From Treponemataceae bacterium (GTDB lineage: Bacteria > Spirochaetota > Spirochaetia > Treponematales > Rectinemataceae), in contig CAXXGJ010000038.1 of NCBI GenBank assembly GCA_963677895.2, positions 96,001-160,000 on the forward strand: a DNA stretch of 64,000 nucleotides, in the 5' to 3' direction. A model generated the notes under the pieces. The model was not told where the DNA came from. It ran no database searches and saw only the letters and a program-made list of their open reading frames with translations. Below are positions 1,200 to 8,464 of the stretch, one piece after another (the first letter of the stretch is position 1; every line of letters starts with the position of its first letter). Made by a program: the position numbers and the translations under genes.

Positions 1200-3296
1200 T
1201 CACTCTTCCTCGGCCTCGGCCGTCTTGAAGGCCTGGGCGGCTTTGATGACATCCTCGGCGATCTTGCCGGAGATGGGAGCGTAATGGGAAAAATCGACTT
1301 CGAACGAAGCGGTTCCCGAGGTCATGGAGCGGAGATCGATGGCGTAGCGGAGAAGCTCGGCTTGGGGAACCTGCGCGTCGACTTCGACAATGCCGCCGCC
1401 GATGGGGTTGCTGCCGGAAATCCTGCCCCTGCGGCCCGAGAGATCCGACATGACGTCGCCGAGATTTTTTTCTTCCGCGAAGACCTTGAGGTCCATGATA
1501 GGCTCCAGGAGGGTGGGGTTGGCGGTCTTGGACGCTTCGCGGAAAGCGCCTCTGGACGCCAGCTTGAAGGCCATTTCTGAGGAATCCACGGGATGTTCCT
1601 TGCCGTCCGTGATGGCGGTTTTCACGTCCACGACGGGGTAGCCCGCGACCACGCCGTTTTCCATCGCCTGATGGATGCCTTTCTCGATGCCGGGAATAAA
1701 GCCGCGGGATACGGACTGACCGAACAGCTTATTCTCGAACTGATAGCCTGCGCCCCGCTCCAAAGGTTCGACCTCGAAGACTACGCGAGCGTACTGGCCA
1801 TGGCCGCCAGTCTGCTTTTTATGCGTATACTCAGCGCCGGATTTCTTGGTTATGGTTTCCCGGTAGGCAACGCGAGGAATCCTCGTCTCGGCCATGATCT
1901 TGGCTTGATTCCTGATCTTGTCGAGGATCATGGTGATCTGAAGATCGCCCATGCCCGCGATGACGGTTTCCTTGGTCTCGACATTGTAGTTTACCTGGAA
2001 GGTCAAATCTTCCTCGGCCGCTTTCAGGAGGAGCTCGTTCAGCTTATCCTCTTCCTTCTTATTGGCGGCGGAGATGGCGACGAGATGGACGGGGGTAGGG
2101 AGCTTCAGGGGTTTGAAGGAGTAGGGCCGATCCATCGCGGAAATGGTATCGTTCGTCTTGAGGCTCGCGGCTTTCGCGATGATGCCGATGTCGCCGGCGA
2201 CGAGCGCCTGGGTTTCCTCGATTTTTTTGCCCTGCGCCGTATAGAGCTTGGAAAGGCGATCCTTTCTGCCGTCGCGCACGTTGACGAATTCGAGTTCCGG
2301 CACGAGGGAGCCGGTGAAAACCTTCACGATGGAAAGGCGGCCCGAAAACTGGTCGATCTGCGTCTTGATGACCATGGCGGTCGCCGGCTTGGCGGCATCA
2401 ACGGATACCTCCATCATGTTGCCGTCGAAATCCTTTACTTCCTCGGCTCCATGAGAGAGGGGAGTGGGCGCCATGAGGGCCAGGAAATCGATAAGAGCGG
2501 CCGTGCCGATGTTCTTGAGTCCGGAACCGGCGAAGGCGGGGACAATTTTCGCGAGAGAGAGGGCGGCGCGGAGGCCGAGAATCATGTCTTCCTGGCTCAG
2601 TTCTCCCTGGTCAAGGTATTTTTCCATGAGGGCGTCTTCGCCTTCGGCCGCGGCTTCGAAAAGCTGGAGCCTGGCGGTTTCCAGCGCTTCCTTATATTCG
2701 GCCGGAACATCGGTGACGATCTCTTTCTGGTCGCCCGCGGCCGGCTTCATATACGCTTTCGCGTTGATGACATCGATAACGCCTTTGATTTCCAATCCTT
2801 CGCCCATGGGGATCGTGACGGGAACCGGCGCGATCTTGAACTTGGCTTTTATATCCTCAAGGCATGCGCCGAAGGACGCGCGATCCTCATCCATCCTGGT
2901 TATGAATACCATGCGCGGCTTGGAACGGCTGTCCAGATTTCTCCAGAGCTTGATGGTCTCGATCTGGACGCCCGATCTGGCGTCGATCAGGAGGAGGGCA
3001 CTCTCGCAAGCCCTGAATGCGAGAATGACCTCGCCTACGAAATCCGAGGATCCGGGCGTGTCGATGAAGTTGATCTTGGTGTCTCTGACGACGCAATGCG
3101 TCAGCGTTGAGCGAACTGATATCTTGCGCGCGATTTCGTCCTCACCGAAATCGCTGACAGTCTTGCCGGATTCGATGGTTTCTGGCTTGGATATCACTCC
3201 GCCCTGAAAGAGAATGTGTTCGAGCAGCGTTGTCTTGCCGGTACTCCCGTGGCCGGCTATGGCGATGTTTCTGATCTGATCGGTTGCGAACGACAT
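1200..3296 (-). CDS. fusA: Elongation factor G paralogue (EF-G2/FusA-like)
   Basis: 698 aa; GHGSTGKT, DTPG, GMGDLQ, VAYRETI, KKQTGGHGQY, HPVDSSEMAF, LLEPIM, LRSMTSG; AAGGAG RBS. Confidence 0.92.
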   Translation of the reverse strand: MSFATDQIRNIAIAGHGSTGKTTLLEHILFQGGVISKPETIESGKTVSDFGEDEIARKISVRSTLTHCVVRDTKINFIDTPGSSDFVGEVILAFRACESALLLIDARSGVQIETIKLWRNLDSRSKPRMVFITRMDEDRASFGACLEDIKAKFKIAPVPVTIPMGEGLEIKGVIDVINAKAYMKPAAGDQKEIVTDVPAEYKEALETARLQLFEAAAEGEDALMEKYLDQGELSQEDMILGLRAALSLAKIVPAFAGSGLKNIGTAALIDFLALMAPTPLSHGAEEVKDFDGNMMEVSVDAAKPATAMVIKTQIDQFSGRLSIVKVFTGSLVPELEFVNVRDGRKDRLSKLYTAQGKKIEETQALVAGDIGIIAKAASLKTNDTISAMDRPYSFKPLKLPTPVHLVAISAANKKEEDKLNELLLKAAEEDLTFQVNYNVETKETVIAGMGDLQITMILDKIRNQAKIMAETRIPRVAYRETITKKSGAEYTHKKQTGGHGQYARVVFEVEPLERGAGYQFENKLFGQSVSRGFIPGIEKGIHQAMENGVVAGYPVVDVKTAITDGKEHPVDSSEMAFKLASRGAFREASKTANPTLLEPIMDLKVFAEEKNLGDVMSDLSGRRGRISGSNPIGGGIVEVDAQVPQAELLRYAIDLRSMTSGTASFEVDFSHYAPISGKIAEDVIKAAQAFKTAEAEEE

Positions 3297-3357: not shown

Positions 3358-3385
3358 ATTATAAGTCATATTTCCCGGCTGTCAA
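3358..3385 (-). promoter_or_regulatory. Sigma70 promoter of the EF-G paralogue
   Basis: Minus strand TTGACA-N16-TATAAT. Confidence 0.7.
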
Positions 3386-3455: not shown

Positions 3456-3528
3456 CGGGACGTAGCCTAGGGGCTAAGGCGTCTGCTTTGGGAGCAGAAG
3501 ATCGGAGGTTCAAATCCTCTCGTCCCGA
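3456..3528 (+). tRNA. tRNA-Pro(TGG)
   Basis: Acceptor CGGGACG/CGTCCCG, anticodon arm TCTGC-TT TGG GA-GCAGA, T loop TTCAAAT; CCA not encoded. Confidence 0.95.
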
Positions 3529-3550
3529 CTACGTACCTTTAAAGTCGATT

Positions 3551-3624
3551 GGGATCATAGCTCAACTGGATAGAGCAACTGCCTTCTAAGCAGTAGGTCG
3601 GGGGTTCGAGCCCCTCTGGTCCCA
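3551..3624 (+). tRNA. tRNA-Arg(TCT)
   Basis: Acceptor GGGATCA/TGGTCCC, anticodon arm ACTGC-CT TCT AA-GCAGT, GTTCGA. Confidence 0.95.
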
Positions 3625-3748
3625 TCTTTCCCTCCTCCTTTTTGATACACATCCATCCGCCGATGAGCTTCTCCCGCATTACCAAACCCGGGGTTCAATC
3701 TATACAGTGTAATCAATATGTTTCGCTAAAATTTTATTGTAAAGTTGA

Positions 3749-3777
3749 TTGACAATTCAATATCCCGAATATAGTCT
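3749..3777 (+). promoter_or_regulatory. Sigma70 promoter of the flavoprotein-cytochrome operon
   Basis: TTGACA-N17-TAGTCT in an AT-rich stretch. Confidence 0.55.
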
Positions 3778-3892
3778 ATCCATGCTTTTTATATCGATCC
3801 GCCTTGGCGTGAGAATTGATCGTCAAATCTTGATTCATGGCATCGCGTCGATGTAATCAACGCAGATTCTAATTTTCCGAAAAAGAGGGAGT

Positions 3893-5758
3893 ATGCAGGA
3901 AAACGAAAAAAAAGGAATCAGCCGCAGGGAGTTCGTAAAGCTTGTCGGAACCGGAGCGGCGGTTGTGGCCGGAGCCACGATAGTTCAGCCCTTGGCCGCG
4001 GATACCGGCAAAGTCGCTGATGCGAAAACCGTTAAGCCGACGCCCGCCGATCTGCCCAGGAAATGGGATCTGGAGGCCGATGTCGTGGTGCTAGGTGCCG
4101 GTGCCGTCGGACTTCCGGCCGCGATCAGGGCCGCCAAAGCCGGCGCTTCCGTCATCATCGTCGAAGCGAACTATGATATCGGCGGTCACGCTATCATCTC
4201 TGGCGGTAACGTTCCCCTTGGCGGCGGAACCAGCTTCCAGAAGAAATATGGCATAAATGACGATGCCGAAACGCTGTTCCGCGATCTTACGGACTGGTCG
4301 GTGGTGGAGGTGAGCGGCATGCCCGATTACCGCTACAACGACAGGGCCGTGCAGCGGGCCTTGGCCGACAATGAAGCCCAGACCTTCGAGTTCCTCCTCG
4401 CCCAGGGCGTCCCCTTTGTGGACAAAAGCCCCGACAATTCCGGCGGACATGCCGTGGGTGTATCCGCGAAACGCGAGCACCATTGCGTATGGACCAAGGG
4501 ACAGAACGCCGAGAGTCCAGCCGGAGCCGGCGGCACGACCCTCATGCGCGCCCTCGAAGACAGCGCCAGGAAAGCGGGCGTGAAGTTCCTGCTCAACTAC
4601 CACATGAACACCATCTACCGCGAACATCCGGATTCCGGCAGGGTATTGGGCATCCAGGCCAACTATACCCCGACCCTTCTTCCGGGATCCCTGTCCCCGC
4701 TTCCGAGTTTCAGGTCCGACGGCAATCTGGGCCTGGACCTCGCCGAAGTGACGATCAAAGCCAAGAAAGCCGTCATCATCGGTACCGGCGGAAGCACGGG
4801 CCATGTCAATTTCCGCAGGATGTTCGATTCGAGGCTGACCGAGGAAATGCCGTTGGCCGGAGGCGAATATTCGCCCCAGGACGCATCGGGCGAGCTCGCC
4901 GCCATGGCTATCGGCGCGACCCTCTGGGGAACCGCGAACCAGACCTTAGACAGGAACGGCGCTCTCAGAAAACGCCCGATCATCGGCACCAGGACCAATT
5001 ATGTCGGATGGAAGAAAGAATCCCCTCTCTTCCCGAAAGTGAAAGCCACGGGACTGAACGTCCGCAGCTGGCAGGACGCCATCATCGTCAATCAGGTAGG
5101 CAAGCGCTTCTACAATGAGATGGAAGACGGCTATCCGAACGGAACGACAGAGGGATACCTGAAGCCGTACGTCCAGGGCGATTGGCGCAACGCGCAGAAC
5201 GCCAAATTTGCCCCGATGAACTATCCTGACGCCGCTCTCGCCATCAACGAGGGCTCCACGGCTCCGGATTACTCCGCTGGTCCCCAGTGGGCCATCTTCG
5301 ACGCGGCGGCGGTGAAGCGCGAAAAGTGGGTCATAGACGGAACCAGCGTTCATCCCGACTATTTCTTCAGCGCGCCCACCCTTGCCGAACTCGCTGCCAA
5401 GATCGAAGCCTGCCCCTATCAGAAAGTGAAGATGCCCGCGGGTAACCTCGAGGCGACGGTCGCCGAATACAATAAGGCGGTGGACCTCGGCGTGGACGAG
5501 GCTTTCGACAAGCCGAAGCCCCAGTACAAGATAGTAGAGGGACCTTTCTACGCGGCCTGGGCCACGATCACCGTACACGATACCTATGCCGGCCTGAGAA
5601 TCAACCAGGAATGCCAGGTCATGAACATGGACGGCGAGGTGATTCCCGGCCTGTACTGCGGCGGCGAATCCGCGGCCGGATGCAGCCAGCACGGCCTGGC
5701 CCGCTGCCTTACCCAAGGGTATATCGCGGGAGCCGTTGCCGCAAAAGAGTCTGTATAA
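3893..5758 (+). CDS. Tat-exported FAD-binding oxidoreductase (flavocytochrome c/fumarate reductase/KstD superfamily flavin subunit), substrate unknown
   Basis: Twin-arginine SRREFVK plus hydrophobic stretch and LAA cleavage site; DVVVLGAGAVG FAD fold; GGHAIISGG; GKRFYNE; GPFYAA; GLYCGGE; GAGGGAG RBS. Confidence 0.88.
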   Translation: MQENEKKGISRREFVKLVGTGAAVVAGATIVQPLAADTGKVADAKTVKPTPADLPRKWDLEADVVVLGAGAVGLPAAIRAAKAGASVIIVEANYDIGGHAIISGGNVPLGGGTSFQKKYGINDDAETLFRDLTDWSVVEVSGMPDYRYNDRAVQRALADNEAQTFEFLLAQGVPFVDKSPDNSGGHAVGVSAKREHHCVWTKGQNAESPAGAGGTTLMRALEDSARKAGVKFLLNYHMNTIYREHPDSGRVLGIQANYTPTLLPGSLSPLPSFRSDGNLGLDLAEVTIKAKKAVIIGTGGSTGHVNFRRMFDSRLTEEMPLAGGEYSPQDASGELAAMAIGATLWGTANQTLDRNGALRKRPIIGTRTNYVGWKKESPLFPKVKATGLNVRSWQDAIIVNQVGKRFYNEMEDGYPNGTTEGYLKPYVQGDWRNAQNAKFAPMNYPDAALAINEGSTAPDYSAGPQWAIFDAAAVKREKWVIDGTSVHPDYFFSAPTLAELAAKIEACPYQKVKMPAGNLEATVAEYNKAVDLGVDEAFDKPKPQYKIVEGPFYAAWATITVHDTYAGLRINQECQVMNMDGEVIPGLYCGGESAAGCSQHGLARCLTQGYIAGAVAAKESV

Positions 5759-5890
5759 ATAAGTAGCTTGTTTTCCATGGCCGACGGCGGGGGAAGGAAA
5801 CGGACAGTCTTCTTTTCCTCGCCGTTGACGCATGAATGCGGCGGACTTTCCGAGTCCGCCGAAGCATTTCTTCATTTTCGGGAGTCATAG

Positions 5891-6418
5891 ATGTTTTTCA
5901 ATGAAAAAACAATGCGGAACTGCGCGATTGCCGTGGCCGTTTCGCTCTCGGCCGTAATGTTCGGCTATGCTTCATCGGACATACGATCGGATACGGGATT
6001 CGTTTACGATTCCGGCATCCAGTCGATTCAGGTCCAGACCACGCCGACCACGGTACAGCCGGCCGACGCCACGAGCGGGGCCAGCGAGGCGGCGGAAGAG
6101 CCCGCTTCGGATGCCGTTTCGAGCGCCACCGATGAAAACGCCGTCAAGGATTCAGCTTATTGCCTGAAATGCCACGGTCCGTTCGAGAAACTCGCGGAGA
6201 GAACGGCGGATTATGTGACGGAGTGGGATGAAAAAGCGAATCCCCATGTATATGTGCCGCATGAATCGAAGACTATCGTGGATTGCGTGGAGTGCCATAC
6301 TCCGCATGATGTACCGTTCAAGGCCGATGAGGGCGCAGCCAAGCCGAATGTCAATTACTGCTATTCCTGCCATCACGCCGAGACGCTCGTCAACTGTAAT
6401 ACCTGCCATAACGAATAG
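5891..6418 (+). CDS. Secreted tetraheme cytochrome c (c3-like) with flavinylation-type motifs in its linker
   Basis: Signal peptide; CLKCH, CVECH, CYSCH, CNTCH and four extra His (119, 124, 139, 162); linker DATSGAS and DAVSSAT. Confidence 0.88.
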   Translation: MFFNEKTMRNCAIAVAVSLSAVMFGYASSDIRSDTGFVYDSGIQSIQVQTTPTTVQPADATSGASEAAEEPASDAVSSATDENAVKDSAYCLKCHGPFEKLAERTADYVTEWDEKANPHVYVPHESKTIVDCVECHTPHDVPFKADEGAAKPNVNYCYSCHHAETLVNCNTCHNE

Positions 6419-6429
6419 GCGATAAAATT

Positions 6430-6475
6430 GAATAGCGGGGAAGCGGCTCGATGCCTTCCGCTTTTTCCGCTATTC
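6430..6475. terminator. Hairpin between the convergent cytochrome gene and tatB
   Basis: GAATAGCGGGGAAGCGG pairs with CCGCTTTTTCCGCTATTC. Confidence 0.55.
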
Positions 6476-6802
6476 TCTTTGGCTTTCTTCCGCTAGTTTA
6501 TCCAGTTCTTCCTGCGTAGGCTCAGCCTTGGAAGGGTTTTCCGGTGACGGAGAGACTTGAGGGGCCGCCTCGGTTTTCTTGTCTTCAGCCTTCTGGTTGT
6601 CGGAATCCTGTACAGCCGCGGTTATATCCATCTGCCTCATGAAATCGTCTTTGACGGCGGTGATTTCCTTGAATATCTTTTTAGCCTGCGCGTAATAATG
6701 ACCAAGTTTCCTGAAAAAAGCCGGCAGATCATCGGGACGTATGACGATCATGATCAGGAGAACGATAATGGCTAATTCCGAAAAACCTATGCCGAACATC
6801 AT
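6470..6802 (-). CDS. tatB: Twin-arginine translocase TatB
   Basis: MFGIGFSEL, N-terminal TM, PDDLP, amphipathic helix, charged tail; ATGA overlap with the tatC stop. Confidence 0.85.
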   Translation of the reverse strand: MMFGIGFSELAIIVLLIMIVIRPDDLPAFFRKLGHYYAQAKKIFKEITAVKDDFMRQMDITAAVQDSDNQKAEDKKTEAAPQVSPSPENPSKAEPTQEELDKLAEESQRE

Positions 6803-7548
6803 TTTTCTCCGAATTTGAAAATCTTCGCGATCAGAAGAGCGAGAAAATAGAGGACGGTCAGGGGAATAGCGACCCCCAGCTGGCTTATGAAATCGGGGGG
6901 CGTGATGATCGCGGACGCGATGAATATCGCCACTATTATGAAACGGCTCGCCTTTAGTACCGATTTGCGTTTCAAAATATTCAGCATGAGAAGAACTTCC
7001 ATGAGGAGCGGCGTCTGGAGAGCGAGCACGGACCAGAGAATGAAGGAGAACACATAGAAGATATTCGCCTGATAATTGAGAAGATAACCGACGTTTTTTG
7101 GAATGAAGTAGGGATTCGTCAGGAAGCTGATGGCGAGAGGGACGATCCTGAAGTAGGCGAGATAAGCCCCGAACACGATCAGGACGAGACTGGAGAATAA
7201 AGTCCAGAGGATCACCCGCTGATGGCGTTTTTCCACTCCCGGAAAGACGAAACGCAGAAGGTTGAAAATATGGACGGGAGACGAAAGGATAAGGCCGGCA
7301 TAGACGGCGATCTTCATCTGTGAGGAGAAACCTTCGATGATAGTCGTCACCACGAGCTTGCTTTCCACGGCGCTGGATACGGCGTTGAACTGCCTGGTGA
7401 ATATGCCGATTATTTTATCCGAAAAAACAAACGACGCGATGGCGCATGCGAGAAAAGAACCCATGGATATGAATATGAGCTTGCGCAGTTCCCTTACATG
7501 CTCGATGAAGGGCATAACCTTGCCGGGATTTTTCACGTCTGCTGTCAT
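6799..7548 (-). CDS. tatC: Twin-arginine translocase TatC (alternative start 7599)
   Basis: MPFIEHVRELR, FVFPG, IITPPDFISQ; multiple TM segments. Confidence 0.92.
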   Translation of the reverse strand: MTADVKNPGKVMPFIEHVRELRKLIFISMGSFLACAIASFVFSDKIIGIFTRQFNAVSSAVESKLVVTTIIEGFSSQMKIAVYAGLILSSPVHIFNLLRFVFPGVEKRHQRVILWTLFSSLVLIVFGAYLAYFRIVPLAISFLTNPYFIPKNVGYLLNYQANIFYVFSFILWSVLALQTPLLMEVLLMLNILKRKSVLKASRFIIVAIFIASAIITPPDFISQLGVAIPLTVLYFLALLIAKIFKFGEK

Positions 7549-7570
7549 AGTCTTCTCGAGGTCAGAGGTT

Positions 7571-7762
7571 TCAGACTTTTGAATCTTTCTTGCCTTCATC
7601 TTTTCCGGAACCTGTCTCCTGCGCGCTTTCCCCGTCTTTCATCGCCTTGGAGAATTCCTTCTTGGCTTCGCCGAGCGAGCGGGCGAACTTGGGAATGGCG
7701 CTGGCCCCGAAAAGCACCAATATGACCGCCACGATTACGATTATTTCCGTCGTTCCTATCAT
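7571..7762 (-). CDS. tatA: Twin-arginine translocase TatA
   Basis: MIGTTEIIVI...LVLFGASAIPKFARSLGEAKKEF; AAGGAG RBS before ATG 7762. Confidence 0.92.
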   Translation of the reverse strand: MIGTTEIIVIVAVILVLFGASAIPKFARSLGEAKKEFSKAMKDGESAQETGSGKDEGKKDSKV

Positions 7763-7901
7763 GATAAAACTCCTTACAATGAAACAGAAAATGCATCGAT
7801 CCGGTGTCGTCCCGCGAAATCGACATGAACCGCGGACCTCGCCGAAGACAGTACATTTCATACTTATCGGTAGGCTATGTCAACACGTATTCGACGTCTT
7901 T

Positions 7902-8372
7902 TTATCCGTTGGCGATGCTCATCTGCACGAGCGCGTCGCAGCGTTCGTTGTCGGGTACGCCGGCGTGGCCTTCCACCCAATGGAATTCCGCCCGGCTCGC
8001 GGCGACGAGAGCGTCCAGCTGTTCCCATAATTCCCTGTTTTTCACGGGCTTCTTGTCGGCGGTTTTCCAGCCGTTGCGCTTCCAGCCCGACATCCACTTC
8101 AAAACGCCGTTGCGGACATACTGGGAATCGGTAAAGACATGCACGGGAGCTTCGGCCCAGGAAGTTCCCTGGCGTTGGCCTTCCGTCTTGCGCGCCACGA
8201 TGAAGCGAAGCGCTTCGATGACGGCGCGCAACTCCATTCGGTTGTTGGTCGTGTCAGGTTCGCCGCCGCTATCCTCGCGGAGCCTGTCGCCGTAGCGCAT
8301 GACATAGGCCCAGGCCCCAGGTCCGGGATTTCCATGGCATCCGCCGTCGGTGTGAATGATGATTTCCTGCAT
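7902..8372 (-). CDS. rnhA: Ribonuclease HI
   Basis: TDGGCHGNPGPG, TTNNRMEL, TDSQYV, VKNRELW, WVEGHAG..DNERCD. Confidence 0.96.
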   Translation of the reverse strand: MQEIIIHTDGGCHGNPGPGAWAYVMRYGDRLREDSGGEPDTTNNRMELRAVIEALRFIVARKTEGQRQGTSWAEAPVHVFTDSQYVRNGVLKWMSGWKRNGWKTADKKPVKNRELWEQLDALVAASRAEFHWVEGHAGVPDNERCDALVQMSIANG

Positions 8373-8464
8373 CGGCGACACTATGGCAGAAAAATCCTCA
8401 TCGGGCAATCCGGGCAGGTGAAAAGTATTGTCTTTCAGAGTCGGGAACAGTAAACTCTTTGGAT

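Follow-up and report, generated by a model that had tools for sequence, protein, structure and literature searches.

A five-gene insertion beside tRNA-Arg in a Rectinemataceae spirochaete encodes a putative periplasmic reductase, a tetrahaem cytochrome with flavinylation-like motifs and a Tat translocase

A block of five genes, encoding a flavoprotein, a tetrahaem cytochrome c and the translocase components TatA, TatC and TatB, was found inserted between tRNA-Arg and rnhA in a member of the Rectinemataceae. The block likely encodes (probability about 0.6) a periplasmic reductase resembling Mrd/Mcc, which would act on an acceptor other than fumarate and be fed by a wire of flavins and haems. 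The sequence itself shows the gene content and the insertion, the conflict between gene trees, the conserved motifs and the absence of an arginine loop at the C-terminus.

Gene content and insertion site

Annotation of the window, i.e. the whole 64,000-nucleotide stretch analyzed, bore out the layout proposed in an earlier sequence-only reading: tRNA-Arg, flavoprotein, four-haem cytochrome, convergent tatA-tatC-tatB and rnhA.

3456..3529, + strand: tRNA-Pro(TGG), ARAGORN; left flank, 5' of tRNA-Arg
3550..3626, + strand: tRNA-Arg(TCT), bordering the insertion on the left; empty sites in relatives
3893..5758, + strand: flavoprotein gene, 621 aa; PF00890 match, E 3e-37; FAD enzyme of the fumarate-reductase/Fcc3 superfamily
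3920..3940, + strand: twin-arginine motif SRREFVK in the flavoprotein sequence, which also has a hydrophobic stretch
5755..5890, + strand: flavoprotein-cytochrome spacer with stable hairpins (z -5.1)
5891..6418, + strand: tetrahaem cytochrome c gene, 175 aa; four CXXCH; PF14537
6065..6085, + strand: cytochrome motif 1, DATSGAS; agrees exactly with D-x-x-[ST]-G-A-[ST], the motif published for ApbE
6110..6130, + strand: cytochrome motif 2, DAVSSAT, flavinylation-like variant
6425..6480, no strand assigned: hairpin between the convergent cytochrome and tatB genes (z -2.4); possible shared terminator
6470..6802, - strand: tatB; best match TIGR01410, 40.8 bits against a cut-off of 56.5
6799..7599, - strand: tatC, above the NCBIfam cut-off; sole copy in the genome
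7571..7762, - strand: tatA, above the NCBIfam cut-off; sole copy in the genome
7878..7883, - strand: TTGACA upstream of tatA, -10 partner weak
7902..8408, - strand: rnhA, right border, outside the block

The TTGACA previously noted upstream of the Tat genes is present at 7878..7883 but is weak evidence, since no -10 element passed the promoter scan and the hexamer occurs 22 times across the window. A further copy lies upstream of the flavoprotein gene, near position 3750.

The block is an insertion at the tRNA-Arg/rnhA junction. Comparison of synteny from tRNA-Arg to rnhA upheld the earlier proposal of an acquired module: EF-G2, tRNA-Pro, tRNA-Arg and rnhA adjoin directly, free of the block, in four relatives (G005, G009, G010 and G022), two of which hold the block at another site. 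At the remaining 10 of 14 rnhA loci, no tRNA-Arg was found near rnhA. Among the marks of a tRNA-anchored island, an empty site in relatives was thus detected, while no integrase ORF was found within the block and no duplicated tRNA-Arg 3' end in the window. Third-position GC placed the flavoprotein gene at the genome median and tatB at the 3rd percentile.

Flavoprotein-tat linkage was seen in three distinct layouts. The complete form, in G327, comprises seven genes in one unit (flavoprotein-cytochrome-resB-ccsA-tatBCA), and its flavoprotein is identical to a protein labelled Breznakiella homolactica at source. G107, from another family, carries a block-type tatC beside the flavoprotein and a native tatC as a second copy. 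In 5/13 genomes tatC lies away from the flavoprotein-cytochrome pair. Comparison of these loci indicates that the five genes have travelled together, both from site to site and from one lineage of free-living spirochaetes to another.

The Tat translocase, its cargo and its phylogeny

Homologues of TatA, TatB and TatC are all present, TatA and TatC above their cut-offs and TatB with a best match below it. The host genome (G000) contains a single tat locus and two strict Tat signals, one on the flavoprotein and the other on a split-Soret-like cytochrome encoded on another contig. As the sole tat locus, that of the block must also serve this second cargo, and the block's Tat would now be the only translocase of the host. 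The description of the translocase as dedicated therefore did not hold; two tat copies, as a substrate-dedicated Tat would require, are found in G107 and not in G000. Nor is the cassette self-contained, since haem attachment (resB-ccsA) is encoded on another contig and the tat genes are shared. The contrast drawn with Treponema and Borrelia, described as lacking Tat, overstates the surprise: TatC occurs in 20/24 same-family genomes and in 43/68 of a larger sample.

This frequency, together with the single tat locus, would suit an incidental neighbour, with tatA-tatC-tatB being simply the ordinary translocase of the family. So would the related tat operons elsewhere, which adjoin other cargo or none, and G020, which holds a block-type TatC (77%) and no flavoprotein in a genome 80% complete. 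However, the TatC tree conflicts with that of RpoB: G017 is 95% identical in RpoB but 51% in TatC, G107 is 81% in RpoB but 70% in TatC, and TatC rejects the groupings expected from the species tree (AU p 5e-83 and 9e-53). According to these trees, TatC inheritance is not vertical. Furthermore, a close flavoprotein is present in 10/14 genomes of the block's TatC subclade versus 3/82 other tatC-positive genomes (kin are not independent), G107 holds both types of tatC, and linkage recurs in different layouts. An incidental neighbour is very unlikely; the empty sites and the tree conflict already go most of the way to refuting it. The earlier claim that the module brings its own export machine is supported in that block-type TatC accompanies the flavoprotein.

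The flavoprotein and the direction of its reaction

The flavoprotein has an FAD_binding_2 fold (PF00890; structure model pLDDT 83), nearest to Fcc3, KstD4 and UrdA, and shares it with Shewanella flavocytochrome c3 (Fcc3) and the urocanate reductase UrdA (Foldseek E 1e-31, 22-24% identity). Its TIGR01813 score of 146 bits is far under the cut-off of 285.45, and it contains no CXXCH. Identity is 64-93% among the best 120 matches, indicating a tightly conserved subfamily that ranges over spirochaetes, Desulfovibrio, Sutterella, Acidobacteria and Betaproteobacteria. An RR-like motif is present in 100/104 full-length homologues and is strict in 75.

The C-terminal carboxylate-binding motifs of fumarate reductases are HH..GG and NRLGG. 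In the subfamily, HHTMGG and HGANRLGG are replaced by HD[TS] (118/120 homologues) and xSQHG (xxQHG in 120/120, without Arg). The first His of HHTMGG is kept in the block enzyme as His562, whereas the second is Asp563, and HGANRLGG is reduced to a six-residue-shorter SQHG, leaving a gap against Fcc3. The enzyme has no counterpart of the C-terminal arginine loop that fumarate reductases possess. For His365 and Arg402, Fcc3 residues with mutants named in PDB titles, the alignment ends at Fcc3 residue 401 with 365 uncovered, and no Arg follows the aligned RFYNE.

Loss of this loop also suits the oxidative direction, in which a periplasmic dehydrogenase or desaturase similar to 3-ketosteroid or cyclohexanone dehydrogenase would pass electrons through the cytochrome into menaquinone. 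The best single-sequence PDB match is a dehydrogenase, 4AT0 (phmmer E 4e-26), and KstD and cyclohexanone dehydrogenase align to the model with TM 0.52-0.58, at least equal to Fcc3. In the profile search, however, Fcc3 and UrdA rank first. Cytochrome bd oxidase was found in 0/5 genomes, so that electrons would need another sink, which favours reduction. Moreover, characterized pairs of a Tat flavoprotein and a tetrahaem cytochrome are reductases in the account of PMC4427408, and reductases without the conserved arginines are described in bioRxiv 10.1101/2022.12.26.521950. Oxidation is therefore judged unlikely.

The preferred reductase reading is supported by the layout shared with the methacrylate reductase system Mrd/Mcc of Geobacter sulfurreducens AM-1. 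In PMC4427408 the gene for a Tat-exported flavoprotein devoid of haem precedes one for a multihaem cytochrome c of Sec type, a terminator hairpin lies in the spacer, and the gene pair is transferred horizontally together; that description likewise names no carrier from menaquinone to the cytochrome. The likeness is drawn from this published description, in which Mrd has 526 aa (621 aa in the block enzyme) and is annotated with flavocytochrome c homologues. Unlike Mrd/Mcc, the block has co-travelling tat genes and flavinylation-like cytochrome motifs. It resembles Fcc3 in its PF14537-type tetrahaem unit but encodes enzyme and haems in two separate genes. Fcc3 relies on haems, UrdA on an FMN domain; the block appears to combine both.

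The same subfamily (44-46% identity) occurs in 12/143 genomes of a largely Tat-less treponeme family, f3. Three f3 members examined at full length are of lipoprotein type with a C-terminal SGAT motif, FMN_bind being Pfam-confirmed in one. This form fits an FMN relay as the natural electron input.

Cytochrome motifs and predicted electron flow

The cytochrome combines four CXXCH with four further invariant His, predicting bis-His ligation, and has an N-terminal hydrophobic helix (residues 5-26) constituting a non-Tat signal, and a low-complexity linker. Its tandem flavinylation-like motifs were absent from the sequence-only reading. A homologue is present in all eight flavoprotein-orthologue genomes among 24 of the family. 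The gene lies downstream of the flavoprotein in G167, G107, G327 and a Desulfovibrio locus; it is absent directly after an Acidobacteria orthologue, and the Sutterella loci yielded no such gene.

DATSGAS occupies residues 59-65. The published motif was detected in 18/60 four-haem homologues versus 0.18 in shuffled linkers (max 3), and with G or A allowed in 43/60 versus 0.74 expected, an enrichment of about 60-100-fold. A looser pattern, drawn after the homologue motifs had been inspected, matched 60/61 homologues with 104 motifs versus about 1 expected. Among 2899 predicted proteins, the cytochrome is the only one with two such motifs. A seven-residue tag is described as enough for ApbE, and a G-to-A change as retaining about 50% flavinylation (PMC12052999). 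Furthermore, ApbE modifies unstructured extensions (PMC11334425, section 6), and FMN_bind, for which PF04205 gave no match in the cytochrome, is not required in every substrate (PMC11334425). On this pattern, the linker is predicted, with good probability, to take up covalent FMN.

Alternatively, the pair might be a reductase whose linker remains unflavinylated. As in ordinary Mrd/Mcc, the cytochrome would then receive its electrons from another haem, or from the iron-sulfur centres of a membrane protein that oxidises quinol. The strict motif is confined to the 18 homologues noted above, the commonest variants (DATSAAT, EAVSSAS) are non-canonical, apbE (C2:182619-183455) does not adjoin the block, and the G327 and Desulfovibrio cytochromes lack the motifs, which suggests that these are dispensable for function of the pair. 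Against this stand the enrichment over shuffles, the retention of the seven-residue pattern, often in 2-4 copies, within an otherwise non-aligning linker, and the activity of ApbE on such extensions. An unflavinylated linker is accordingly considered unlikely.

Flavinylation of the linker would have precedents in ApbE-flavinylated extracytosolic reductases and multi-flavinylated proteins, where [ST]GA[ST]-like motifs occur on unstructured extensions, flavins and cytochromes substitute for one another near PF00890 enzymes (147 clusters are reported in which the cytochrome has a gene of its own), and flavin-plus-haem RnfG proteins are predicted in Christensenellales (PMC8238504, PMC11334425). 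Unlike those systems, the block has its motifs on a bare linker, and the tetrahaem partner that carries them is soluble and without FMN_bind. The main text of both papers makes no mention of spirochaetes.

Of the ccm/ccs, apbE and quinone genes that the sequence-only reading had named for checking, the host has resB-ccsA, CcdA/ResA-like genes, ApbE (5/5 genomes) and late menaquinone genes, and a maturation system is thus not lacking. The genome also encodes four FMN-domain flavin reductases, MqnP and NqrBCDEF. MqnP is present in 13/13 genomes with a close flavoprotein orthologue and in 0/3 f3 genomes. Of the early futalosine steps, MqnA/D were found in 1/5 genomes and MqnC in 0/5; ALAD was found in 0/5, so that quinone and haem would need to be scavenged. 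The host mqnL is in three pieces, probably an assembly error. NapC/NirT was found in 0/5 genomes, and no membrane electron donor was linked to the block at any locus examined. An NqrF orthologue occurs in only 9/13 genomes; the G000 nqr operon is without nqrA, and its NqrB without the first ~110 model positions.

In the proposed mechanism, the folded FAD enzyme would very likely be exported through Tat, and the cytochrome, with nearly the same probability, by Sec, with scavenged haem attached by ResB/CcsA. ApbE would probably place FMN on Ser65 and/or Thr80 (unprocessed protein numbering). Electrons would then, with reasonable probability, leave a donor in the membrane for the FMN tail and run on through the haems to FAD and the substrate. 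Rather than NapC, that donor would be a protein linked to menaquinol or flavin, the candidates being a NapH-like protein, a DUF4405 cytochrome b and NqrBCDEF. That this flow would conserve energy, as opposed to mere electron dumping, has somewhat less than an even chance. A broader scheme, tentative and on balance doubtful, would have Rectinemataceae running a scavenger respiratory chain on borrowed haem and naphthoquinone precursor, in which a tetrahaem cytochrome with a flexible, multiply FMN-tagged tail stands in for NapC/CymA as a hybrid wire of flavin and haem, supplying a widespread subfamily of reductases whose active site is new. Under this scheme Tat, and in some cases genes for haem attachment, would spread along with the unit, the f3 form being wired as an FMN-domain lipoprotein.

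Rectinema cohabitans HM, of the same family, is described in PMC6052044 as obligately fermentative and as having no determinants of anaerobic respiration. Unlike that description, the host genome has the block, the flavin reductases, MqnP and NqrBCDEF. The block would likely let presumed fermenters pass electrons to an outside acceptor, and respiration of an organic acceptor, as proposed earlier, would have to proceed in genomes where NapC was not found. The block calls the obligate fermenter label into question for groundwater and digester spirochaetes. It marks a large, tightly conserved reductase-like subfamily and is a clean example of cargo that travels with its own export machine and displaces the resident Tat. 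It also offers a direct test case for covalent flavinylation of a c-type cytochrome on a bare peptide tail, with a cultured host at hand through the seven-gene form and its Breznakiella homolactica label. If true, such a tail would connect flavin-based chains in the membrane with haem chains, NapC not being needed.

Position and movement of the five-gene block

The genes that the sequence-only reading had placed in the window were all found at their positions. In the window, tRNA-Pro and tRNA-Arg(TCT) are followed by a 621-residue flavoprotein with a Tat signal (SRREFVK), a 175-residue cytochrome with four CXXCH motifs, a convergent tatA, tatC and tatB, and rnhA. The TTGACA noted upstream of tatA is present as a hexamer, while no -10 partner passed the promoter scan. 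The neighboring second EF-G gene (window 1200-3296) has a perfect TTGACA-16-TATAAT promoter upstream (window 3358-3385, minus strand). By its nearest named protein match (93%), the host falls in Rectinemataceae. The host genome, G000, is 3.51 Mb with 92.8% completeness and 5.5% contamination. Identical or near-identical genes occur across its contigs (C6:346372-350245 and C29:10586-14819, also C10 and C16), consistent with that contamination or with strain mixing.

The proposal that the block was acquired as a unit was borne out by an empty tRNA-Arg/rnhA site in relatives and by conflict between TatC and RpoB. EF-G2, tRNA-Pro, tRNA-Arg and rnhA are contiguous without an insert in four relatives (G005, G009, G010, G022), with a gap from tRNA-Arg to rnhA of approximately 25 bases in G022; no tRNA-Arg was found near rnhA in the remaining 10 of 14 rnhA loci. 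The site is occupied in G001, and G002 shows the same at its rnhA end. G005 carries the same five genes in a different genomic place; in G022 they are split between contigs, cytochrome-tatBCA on a short one and the flavoprotein on a second. Flavoproteins with at least 72% identity occur in 13 of 401 genomes of the order. The tat genes adjoin the flavoprotein-cytochrome pair in seven of these (G000, G001, G002, G005, G022, G107, G327), a single tatA follows the cytochrome in G017, and tatC lies elsewhere in the other five.

In G107, of family f6, tatACB is divergent from the pair and a native tatC is also present. In the TatC tree the block copy of G107 groups with the G000 group (support 98/86); its native copy clusters with further genomes of f6 (100/98). 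In AU tests of groupings chosen after the trees were seen, TatC rejected the species-tree groupings and RpoB rejected the TatC grouping (p < 1e-50). The RpoB tree was built without G327 (only a 40% hit) and with partial rows for G005 and G023, and GyrB, with no hit in 5 of 30 genomes, was excluded as a marker. A classical integrative island was ruled out, as neither an integrase nor an att repeat was found. Since no such trace is left and the codon GC of the flavoprotein equals the genome median, the move is either old or a rearrangement.

Flavoprotein and cytochrome

The flavoprotein adopts the fold of flavocytochrome c3 (Fcc3), urocanate reductase (UrdA) and 3-ketosteroid dehydrogenase (KstD), with 22-24% identity to those structures, and scores below every NCBIfam cut-off shown. 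Among 7999 scored proteins, 4876 are relatives at E 1e-50 or better; the best 120 share 64-93% identity and bear generic automatic names only. Desulfovibrio, Sutterella and Acidobacteria have orthologues at 67-69%. Seven residues are invariant in 82 sequences (Tyr370, Trp373, Trp556, His562, Asp563, Gln599 and His600). A fumarate reductase assignment was rejected on the below-cut-off score and the missing arginine loop. Compared with fumarate reductase motifs, HHTMGG is replaced by HDTYAG and HGANRLGG by a shorter SQHG, so that fumarate appears an unlikely substrate. Reductases that lack the conserved arginines also form known clades (bioRxiv 10.1101/2022.12.26.521950, in part). No neighboring gene recurred in 14 loci as a clue to the substrate.

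In family f3, the same enzyme subfamily was found in 12 of 143 genomes (44-46% identity, frames of 750-790 residues). The three proteins examined over their full length are of lipoprotein type with a C-terminal SGAT motif, and the FMN_bind domain was confirmed for one; MqnP was not found in their three genomes.

Lipoprotein form with a C-terminal FMN-binding domain in family f3
L198:7905-10160, first protein
L199:5818-8103, second protein
L200:7747-9999, third protein

Set against the cytochrome form of G000, this form mirrors the flavin/cytochrome interchange reported in PMC8238504 (in part), where flavin-plus-haem RnfG proteins are also predicted.

The cytochrome has four further invariant histidines, suggesting bis-His haems. 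The linker N-terminal to haem 1 carries DATSGAS and DAVSSAT, which resemble sites for the flavinylating enzyme ApbE. The minimal ApbE motif is reported as D-x-x-[ST]-G-A-[ST], with flavinylation halved by a G-to-A change (PMC12052999, in part). Of 65 homologues, 60 were full-length with four haems; the published motif was present in 18 of these 60 (expected 0.18, maximum 3 in 1000 shuffles) and a version with G or A in 43 (expected 0.74), while a looser pattern defined post hoc matched 60 of 61. The motifs were not found in the cytochromes of G327 and Desulfovibrio. Unstructured extensions can be flavinylated by ApbE, according to the accessible part of PMC11334425. The structural model of the cytochrome is poor (pLDDT 58, built on 12 sequences) and was excluded from the fold search; over residues 29-81, where confidence is low, it is no more than compatible with disorder. 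Names from the ESM Atlas were generic throughout. Elsewhere in G000, a 491-residue lipoprotein (C2:64551-66023; L137:2551-4023) has one CXXCH, DTTSAAS near its N-terminus and no NCBIfam hit at 1e-10.

Tat translocation and haem attachment

The description of the translocase as dedicated does not hold for G000, which encodes one copy each of tatA, tatB and tatC and a second strict Tat signal. One of the two signals is that of the flavoprotein; the other belongs to a C25 protein with two CXXCH motifs. Both were found with regular expressions, not a trained predictor, so RK/KR or piggy-backing cargo could have escaped the scan. Likewise, the block is not self-contained, as the haem attachment genes of G000 lie outside it; the truly self-contained form is that of G327 (family f4), in which flavoprotein, cytochrome, resB, ccsA and a convergent tatBCA form a single run. 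The search for cytochrome c maturation, apbE and quinone genes did recover resB-ccsA, ApbE and late futalosine genes in G000.

Haem attachment locus of G000
L027:10156-12817 (C25:180156-182817), split-Soret-like dihaem cytochrome with a Tat signal, in an operon with resB and ccsA

A Tat signal on a c-type cytochrome is unusual. The best match of this protein, which heads the operon, is split-Soret cytochrome c, below the cut-off. CcdA-like and ResA-like genes lie elsewhere on C25. ALAD was not found in any of the five genomes searched, so haem is probably scavenged.

TatC was found in 20 of 24 same-family genomes (43 of 68 in a larger sample); in other families the counts were 22 of 42 (f6), 25 of 142 (f4) and 3 of 143 (f3). 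The split-Soret-like cytochrome is present in 6 of the 24. In G010, G127 and G222 related tatACB operons adjoin its gene and resB-ccsA, and in G004 and G023 they lie near other Tat cargo. Between G127 and G000, the split-Soret-like protein and CcsA are approximately 80% identical and TatC approximately 50%. From these comparisons, we infer that the G000 lineage lost the tat copy of its split-Soret type locus and kept that of the block. Two relatives carry other arrangements: G277 has a tatACB of the same subclade amid five other flavin-reductase-like genes (L266:2064-13998), and a locus of G014 (L040:4681-13378) combines a 3-haem and an 11-haem cytochrome with resB-ccsA, tat genes and a polyferredoxin that has a Tat signal.

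Electron supply and predicted respiration

Quinone and electron transfer loci of G000
L132:2495-8120 (C25:52495-58120), mqnL-mqnP-ubiX with an SsuA-type ABC transporter
L133:1811-5707 (C12:85811-89707), nqrB-C-D-E-F operon with a short NqrB and no nqrA
L309:4857-5363 (C25:196857-197363), DUF4405 membrane cytochrome b next to a two-component system, candidate electron exit
L142:8988-14366 (C25:142988-148366), Rrf2-like regulator, hcp-like gene, BigR-like repressor, dsrE2, tusA, NarI/DsrM-like cytochrome b and DsrK/TmcB-like Fe-S protein
L135:3277-5088, L136:3342-5300, L138:690-2909 and C16:4048-6078, four flavin reductases with FMN domains, of which three or more have Sec lipoprotein signals

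MqnP is present in all 13 genomes with a close flavoprotein orthologue, which points to menaquinol as the electron pool. The early futalosine genes MqnA/D and MqnC were not found, and mqnL-mqnP-ubiX with its transporter looks like a menaquinone salvage route. The mqnL of G000 is in three pieces with two one-base frame breaks and is intact in G001, G002 and G005; contigs of near-identical strains from three runs have one base fewer at each break, so the breaks are probably assembly errors.

Several membrane donors were considered. A NapC/CymA-type donor was rejected, as none was found in five of five genomes, and a regular-expression scan of G000 gave no more than two proteins with several haem sites. 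Cytochrome bd was likewise not found in five of five genomes. NqrF orthologues occur in 9 of the 13 genomes, making Nqr a possible but not obligatory electron entry; a complete Rnf operon is also present, on C6. G000 further encodes two NapH-like proteins, the DUF4405 cytochrome b, a DOMON-cytochrome b561 pair, a DsrM/DsrK-like pair and ApbE. DOMON-b561 was rejected as a general donor, being present in two of five genomes only, both of genus g1. The DsrM/DsrK-like pair was likewise rejected: its neighbors tusA, dsrE2 and a BigR-like regulator make a role in sulfur handling more likely, possibly as a quinol-linked persulfide module. The four FMN-domain flavin reductases of G000 give this presumed fermenter a modest set of reductases, and G001 and G002 have more of them.

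In the proposed mechanism, Tat would export the FAD-loaded flavoprotein, while Sec, ResB/CcsA and ApbE would assemble an FMN-tailed tetrahaem cytochrome. A membrane donor would reduce the FMN tail, and the haems would hand electrons to FAD and then to an acceptor. By its architecture, the block would work like Mrd/Mcc, the methacrylate reductase system of Geobacter sulfurreducens AM-1 (PMC4427408, in part), and not as a fumarate reductase.

That overall architecture is already known. The predicted FMN-tailed tetrahaem cytochrome, the active-site subfamily and the apparent joint movement with Tat in spirochaetes would be new; these were not met in the mainly open literature, and supplements of PMC8238504 and bioRxiv 10.1101/2022.12.26.521950 may list the genes. 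A literature search gave no match combining spirochetes or Treponematales with twin-arginine translocation and cytochrome c biogenesis, and the portion of the Rectinemataceae literature covered does not deal with cytochromes or Tat. The type species of the family is reported as an obligate fermenter (PMC6052044, in part); that electron flow through the block conserves energy is about an even bet.
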